A stretch of 64,000 nucleotides of DNA, taken from Escherichia coli. Its GTDB lineage: Bacteria > Pseudomonadota > Gammaproteobacteria > Enterobacterales > Enterobacteriaceae. The position numbers and the translations under genes were made by a program. Below the pieces are notes generated by a model that searched no databases, was not told where the DNA came from, and worked only from the letters and a program-made list of their open reading frames with translations. The first letter of the stretch is position 1. Every line of letters starts with the position of its first letter. Positions 11,128-11,235 of this stretch are shown in pieces. The stretch lies in the NCBI RefSeq assembly GCF_003334305.1, contig NZ_QOWS01000005.1. The stretch is one strand, 5' to 3'.

Positions 11128-11235
11128 TCAGCCCCAAATCATTGCTGCCCAACGTAGCAACAACATAGCGCCACAGATTGCCAGTAGCACCACCACCATC
11201 TTCCAGTGTTTTTTATCAAAGCGTTTAGTCGGCAT
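11128..11235 (-). CDS. yniD: Small membrane protein YniD (35 aa)
   Basis: C-terminal 35 codons of the 72-aa track ORF: MPTKRFDKKHWKMVVVLLAICGAMLLLRWAAMIWG, recalled as small protein YniD. Confidence 0.6.
   Translation of the reverse strand: MPTKRFDKKHWKMVVVLLAICGAMLLLRWAAMIWG

Follow-up and report, generated by a model that had tools for sequence, protein, structure and literature searches.

The gene yniD is located on the minus strand of the analysed window, a stretch of 64,000 nt of Escherichia coli DNA (contig NZ_QOWS01000005.1). Its coding sequence at 11128..11235, which reads ATG CCG ACT ... GGC TGA on this strand, comprises 35 codons plus the TGA stop and encodes MPTKRFDKKHWKMVVVLLAICGAMLLLRWAAMIWG. 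Beyond the yniD stop codon lies the convergent gene ydiY (10317..11075, plus strand), followed by pfkB (9101..10033, minus strand). On the other side, a spacer of 175 nt separates yniD from the stop of an intact espL1/arpB-type gene with 632 codons (11411..13309, minus strand), whose product resembles type III effectors of the ShET2/EspL family and contains ankyrin repeats. The next gene is thrS (13833..15761, plus strand). The 35-residue YniD is the C-terminal half of an ORF of 72 aa that starts with GTG (11128..11346, minus strand). The upstream part of this ORF, a 37-codon extension at 11236..11346 (minus strand), comprises non-coding leader and presumed promoter DNA and carries the GTG at 11346..11344 as well as a sporadic ATG at 11250..11248. 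According to the first-pass annotation, this extension overlaps the 3' region of ydiY. That is incorrect, since ydiY converges on yniD from beyond its stop codon, and the extension runs into the spacer on the opposite side, towards espL1/arpB (11411).

The feature at 11128..11235 is yniD, an already described gene with a curated 35-codon model, and the name given to it in the first-pass annotation is right. In a strain that is 100% identical over the region, RefSeq places 'small membrane protein YniD' (WP_001142445.1, 108 nt) at exactly these positions. The counterpart in K-12 MG1655 is b4535 (1805165..1805272), with an identical protein sequence. The NCBIfam equivalog NF041491 'membrane_YniD' matches the 35-aa protein with 85.7 bits over profile positions 1-34 of 34, the curated whole-protein cutoff being 40 bits. 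Pfam PF28032 'YniD-like' is precomputed on all database homologues of YniD. The protein also has the typical appearance of the family, i.e. about 35 residues, beginning with the Met of MPTKRF and ending with ...RWAAMIWG. A 551-nt query around the site matched 5417 of 5426 complete E. coli genomes, in which yniD is annotated by RefSeq, and the gene is single-copy in these genomes (median of one place per genome). Two matches to the region were on plasmid-class records and one genome had two places; these may be misassembled or mobilised copies.

Tagged small proteins were reportedly expressed and localised to the membrane in the studies of Hemm et al. 2008 (Mol Microbiol 70:1487) and Fontaine et al. 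2011 (J Biol Chem 286:32464), and YniD is possibly among them. In the papers that we found, yniD receives passing mentions only, and VanOrsdel 2018 does not contain it. Treitz et al. 2016, as cited in PMC12529367, detected YniD by mass spectrometry in M9 cultures of E. coli. PMC7858067 describes how IS2 inserted into the intergenic region of arpB and yniD in the course of long-term stationary-phase evolution. The borrelidin-resistance SNP mentioned in PMC13148393 sits nearer thrS.

In Enterobacteriaceae the gene order around yniD is stable. K-12 and about 55 loci of other genera share divergent thrS and yniD, followed by convergent ydiY and then pfkB. In most Enterobacteriaceae, thrS is located about 300 nt upstream of yniD and espL1/arpB is absent from this position, as it is in several Escherichia clades. 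The K-12 counterpart of espL1 is the pseudogene arpB (b4494), and frameshifts or internal stops are flagged in several further strains, among them one whose yniD region is 100% identical to ours. Because of this patchy presence and the recurrent pseudogenes, espL1 looks like a lineage-specific and repeatedly decaying insertion. Outside the Enterobacteriaceae the neighbours of yniD are different: lldR-lldD-osmC upstream in Pantoea, an MFS transporter and recD in Rahnella, fliDST/yedD in another lineage and csp genes in a further one. A partner gene common to the neighbourhoods in Enterobacteriaceae, Pantoea, Rahnella and the other lineages was not found. Hence, yniD appears to travel alone, and its context gives no functional clue.

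Some further features of these neighbourhoods were noted. In the Pantoea/Erwinia loci (L063-L081) a conserved hairpin, GATGCGCC-nnn-GGCGCATC, with a T-rich tract after it is located some 30-60 nt ahead of the yniD-like start. It lies between osmC and the yniD homologue, with a TAGAAT -10-like box before it, and is probably the terminator of osmC. Many Enterobacteriaceae other than Escherichia (L009, L010, L016 and others) have a spacer between yniD and ydiY that exceeds the one in E. coli by 0.6-0.9 kb. In a single lineage (L088, 3294..3527) a gene for 77 aa was called in this spacer; it has no Pfam hit, and E. coli has no such gene there. Within our window, PGAP names the 96-aa product of 8710..9000 (minus strand), in the yniA-pfkB interval and corresponding to ydiZ in K-12, 'type V toxin-antitoxin system endoribonuclease antitoxin GhoS' (PF11080), and no ghoT-like partner is annotated beside it. 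Four RNA families scored above the Rfam gathering thresholds: RprA at 45925..46032 (minus strand), RydB at 51636..51696 (plus strand), the Phe leader (pheM) at 17127..17251 (plus strand) and STnc540 at 21092..21250 (plus strand). All four are expected for this region of the E. coli chromosome.

For a comparison of the reading frame, 80 orthologous loci were collected from Escherichia, Citrobacter, Enterobacter, Lelliottia, Kluyvera, Yokenella, Trabulsiella, Pseudenterobacter, Rahnella and Pantoea/Erwinia, with the peptides KHWKM and RWAAMIW as retrieval patterns. The invariance of both peptides in the 80 loci is therefore partly a matter of ascertainment. A start codon at the position of the 35-aa frame, either ATG or, in Pantoea, GTG, is present in 79 of 81 sequences, and the stop codon is kept across the 80 loci together with a length of 35-37 aa. 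In 69 of 78 loci the start is preceded, at a distance of 4-9 nt, by a Shine-Dalgarno core of at least 4 nt. In our sequence this core is AGGA (AGGA/GGAGG) at 11246..11243 (minus strand), with a spacing of 7 nt to ATG 11235, and the best anti-Shine-Dalgarno duplex in the -16..-4 window has -4.0 kcal/mol.

The pattern of substitutions is that of a coding sequence. Where codons of the 74 distinct orthologous coding sequences differ by a single base, the difference is synonymous in 78% of cases when read in the yniD frame, compared with 10.6% and 11.1% for the two frames shifted against it. The mean pairwise differences at codon positions 1, 2 and 3 are 0.218, 0.096 and 0.447, respectively. Such pairwise counts are not phylogenetically independent; the contrast between the frames is very large. 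Within the species, 5406 of 5417 genomes (99.8%) have an identity of at least 99% over the 108-nt coding sequence, and seven diverse E. coli strains differ in the 35 codons by one synonymous and no nonsynonymous change. By this comparative evidence, ATG 11235 with the AGGA Shine-Dalgarno sequence 5' of it is clearly the predicted translation start.

A few variant alleles occur among the orthologues. Rare alleles of the start were seen in Citrobacter sp. NCU1 (L021, 2501) and Pantoea rodasii (L078, ~2489..2492), one of them with ATT replacing ATG and one shifted by one codon. At the C-terminus, frameshift or read-through versions of YniD were found: the final -WG is replaced in P0032, more is replaced in P0025, and P0021 runs past the motif. 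These alleles may be pseudogenes, sequencing errors or tolerated variants.

Upstream of the start we predict an extended -10 element, TGTTACACT (TGnTAnnnT), at 11280..11272 on the minus strand. This pattern recurs 28-36 nt ahead of the start codon in 52 of 79 loci (Escherichia, Citrobacter, Enterobacter, Lelliottia and Kluyvera), compared with 6.8 on average and 19 at most for shuffled sequences. Because a generic scan for sigma-70 -35/-10 pairs gave no minus-strand site here and the -35 region is poor, the promoter was called from the conservation of the extended -10 element across genera. Presumably, TGTTACACT is the promoter of yniD, which would place the transcription start near 11266..11263 and result in a leader of about 30 nt. 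Genomic SELEX peaks labelled thrS/yniD (PMC5493296; K-12 positions 1801256 and 1801758) were rejected as promoter evidence. They are located within or at thrS (1800642..1802570), 3.4-3.9 kb away from yniD (1805165).

Between the stop codons of ydiY (11075) and yniD (11128) the terminator scan detected a GC-rich hairpin at 11084..11108 with 11 pairs, seven of them G-C, and a T-rich tail on the plus strand. The fold of the minus strand contains this hairpin too, with a total of -17 kcal/mol. It is likely that 11084..11108 is a bidirectional intrinsic terminator common to ydiY and yniD. On the yniD strand the run of T is weak, so that termination in this direction is presumed.

YniD consists of two clearly different parts. 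Residues 1-12 contain five Lys/Arg and one Asp and have a Kyte-Doolittle mean of -2.11. Residues 13-35 have a mean of +2.13, with Arg28 as the single Arg. AlphaFold2, run with a 30-sequence alignment, predicts one continuous helix from residue 4 to 34 with a mean pLDDT of 83.7. According to the positive-inside rule, a basic N-terminus is cytoplasmic. The protein is thus predicted to be a single-pass inner-membrane helix in N-in/C-out orientation with a basic cytoplasmic N-terminus, and Arg28 and Trp29 would be located near the periplasmic interface. As a prediction, this agrees with the single-transmembrane small protein proposed in the first-pass annotation. A profile search against 1.84 billion representative proteins yielded only 30 with E <=0.001. 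The most divergent members, recovered by a profile search without word index, retain the basic tail, the helix and the C-terminal pattern L-R-W-A-A-(M/I)-x-(W/F)-(G/A). This retention matters because the invariance in the 80 loci is partly due to the retrieval patterns. Like many other conserved small membrane proteins of E. coli, YniD has no known function.

A peptide with these properties might act on the membrane itself. In that case YniD would resemble type I toxins or other membrane-perturbing peptides and would cause depolarisation or form a pore without any protein partner. Its very small size, its strong hydrophobicity and the single helix fit such a role, and YohP, another small membrane protein of E. 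coli, is reported to depolarise the membrane (e.g. bioRxiv 10.1101/2025.05.06.652344; PMC12719787). We consider this explanation very unlikely for YniD, which is encoded by a single-copy gene. An antisense RNA to yniD was not found by Rfam and promoter scans, the reach of which does not include novel antisense RNAs: between 10000 and 14500 no Rfam family was detected at E <=1 except for a chance snoRNA hit, and the generic promoter scan gave no antisense promoter over yniD. Type I toxin mRNAs typically carry a long structured leader, whereas the predicted leader of yniD is short and its Shine-Dalgarno sequence is good and accessible. The mass-spectrometric detection in ordinary minimal-medium cultures, as cited in PMC12529367, also speaks against a toxic peptide. 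Finally, Arg28, Trp29, Ala30, Ala31 and Cys21 are conserved across the families, which argues for a defined contact surface.

The second alternative concerns the length of the product. The true E. coli protein could be longer, with 72 aa from GTG 11346 or with 40 aa from ATG 11250..11248, five codons upstream of the annotated start, and the 35-aa annotation would then be truncated. This third candidate start, ATG 11250, is absent from the description in the first-pass annotation. The yniD frame is indeed open for 41 codons upstream of ATG 11235, and this open stretch, the GTG at -37 and the ATG at -5 are all kept in seven of seven E. coli sensu stricto strains. Moreover, some gene callers gave extended versions of 42-82 aa. 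The extension, whose encoded residues include ...SLDACPFCYTPLSR, contains four Cys residues and has a very weak zf-like match in Pfam. With E = 0.068, however, this match is insignificant and attributable to chance, and one of the four Cys residues is lost in a natural strain.

Several lines of evidence contradict a longer product, so that we regard it as even less probable than a membrane-perturbing peptide. The anti-Shine-Dalgarno duplex has +0.2 kcal/mol at GTG 11346 (-16..-4 window), which means no pairing, and -0.7 kcal/mol at ATG 11250, which has a weak Shine-Dalgarno sequence only, in contrast to -4.0 kcal/mol at the annotated ATG. Only E. coli sensu stricto has the GTG at -37; in place of the ATG at -5, the other clades of Escherichia carry ACG or a different codon. 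Upstream of the yniD ATG no position has a start codon that is conserved in the orthologous loci. In 37 of 77 loci in-frame stops occur 1-11 codons upstream of the yniD start, in most Enterobacter loci one codon before the ATG. In place of the extension, the sequence of other Escherichia clades is unrelated or interrupted by stops. The over-extended gene calls of different species can be aligned from the Met of MPTKRF onward and share nothing upstream of it, and NF041491 matches the 72-aa ORF at residues 39-72 only, i.e. the 34 C-terminal residues.

The variation within E. coli points in the same direction. The 111-nt extension is at least 99% identical in 2324 of 5417 genomes (43%, as opposed to 99.8% for the coding sequence), 95-99% identical in 3044 and 90-95% in 49. 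Under these 111 nt there is no RefSeq annotation in the 5417 genomes. Most of the changes that the seven strains show in the extension are nonsynonymous (I>T, R>M, G>D, C>F and P>S versus one synonymous change), and they include the loss of a Cys residue. The long ORF persists in E. coli only because these strains are closely related. In addition, the conserved extended -10 element is located inside the extension and downstream of GTG 11346. With transcription starting near 11266..11263, this GTG would lie outside yniD's own transcript. A minor long isoform might arise by read-through from espL1, because the open stretch and the GTG are kept in all seven strains.

The origin of the extension can be deduced from alignments of the Escherichia clades. 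Similarity to clades without espL1 reaches no further upstream than about 60 nt from the ATG. Therefore, the distal part of the extension is apparently DNA that arrived with the espL1 insertion, and the proximal part is yniD's own leader. The comparison of loci clearly marks the 72-codon ORF as spurious; leader, promoter DNA and the edge of espL1/arpB, an insertion specific to E. coli, would simply happen to be free of in-frame stops. It had been claimed before that only the C-terminal 35 codons of this ORF are real and that the extension lacks a ribosome-binding site. The first statement is borne out by the codon statistics, the extent of the NF041491 match and the alignment from MPTKRF, and the second by the duplex energies. 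The conservation of the 35-aa versus the 72-aa frame, recommended at that stage as a check, turned out to be decisive: the shorter frame is conserved across about ten enterobacterial genera, in contrast to the species-restricted GTG and the frequent stops upstream.

That the 35-codon ORF is untranslated and its DNA is conserved as an RNA or as the 3' region or terminator of ydiY has a negligible probability: ORFs of 35 codons are common by chance and the hairpin is common to the 3' ends of yniD and ydiY, but this reading is effectively refuted by the codon-position statistics, with the third position most variable and 78% synonymous differences versus 11% in the other frames, and it is opposed by the conserved start codon, Shine-Dalgarno sequence and stop, the lack of an Rfam match, the mass-spectrometric detection reported in PMC12529367 and the occurrence of yniD without ydiY in Pantoea, Rahnella and other lineages.

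Consequently, we assign a probability of about 0.93 to the reading that, as judged from the sequences, the locus holds a real 35-aa yniD gene with a spurious upstream extension. For quality control this means that the longest-ORF track over-extends yniD by 37 codons, and the curated 35-codon model is right.

Based on these results we propose a mode of action. yniD is a stand-alone gene, conserved across Enterobacterales, and would be transcribed from its own extended -10 promoter of the sigma-70 type about 36 nt upstream of the start. The protein would insert N-in/C-out with residues ~13-35 as a helix in the inner membrane. The conserved C-terminal half of this helix may bind a larger inner-membrane protein in a sequence-specific manner and thereby alter the activity or stability of that protein. 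Partner binding is considered because L-R-W-A-A-(M/I)-x-(W/F)-(G/A) is conserved far beyond what hydrophobicity needs. Since the neighbourhood indicates no interaction partner, the mechanism is drawn by analogy, and we consider modulation of a larger membrane protein through binding plausible, at somewhat less than even odds. More doubtful is a narrower version, in which YniD would dock through a dedicated surface, LRWAAMIWG-COOH, onto one inner-membrane complex conserved in Enterobacterales and would be an unrecognised subunit or regulator of it. Less likely than such docking, espL1 read-through could produce a Cys-rich 72-aa isoform in E. coli sensu stricto only. The comparative picture, with the extended -10 element, the basic tail, the RWAAMIWG C-terminus and no operon partner, could guide a search for the partner of YniD and leaves the known state of the protein unchanged.

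A comparison with known systems starts with K-12 itself. K-12 YniD (b4535) is the same protein, encoded by a gene of the same length with the same neighbours, thrS, arpB(espL1), ydiY and pfkB. The difference is the arpB pseudogene upstream in K-12 versus the intact 632-codon espL1 here; yniD itself shows no difference. YohP (27 aa) and the type I toxins resemble YniD in size and hydrophobicity. In contrast to these, YniD has a basic tail of 12 residues and the C-terminal RWAAMIWG, it is encoded by a single-copy gene, and no antisense RNA was detected. Small proteins that bind and modulate larger membrane proteins are known from the pairs AcrZ-AcrB, MgtS-MgtA, CydX-CydAB and MgrB-PhoQ (review PMC12648545). 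YniD differs from AcrZ, MgtS, CydX and MgrB in that it has no sequence relationship to them, no operon-linked candidate partner and no known regulon or phenotype. What it shares with these proteins is a length below 50 aa, a stand-alone gene with a Shine-Dalgarno sequence and, by prediction, one transmembrane helix with conserved residues in it.
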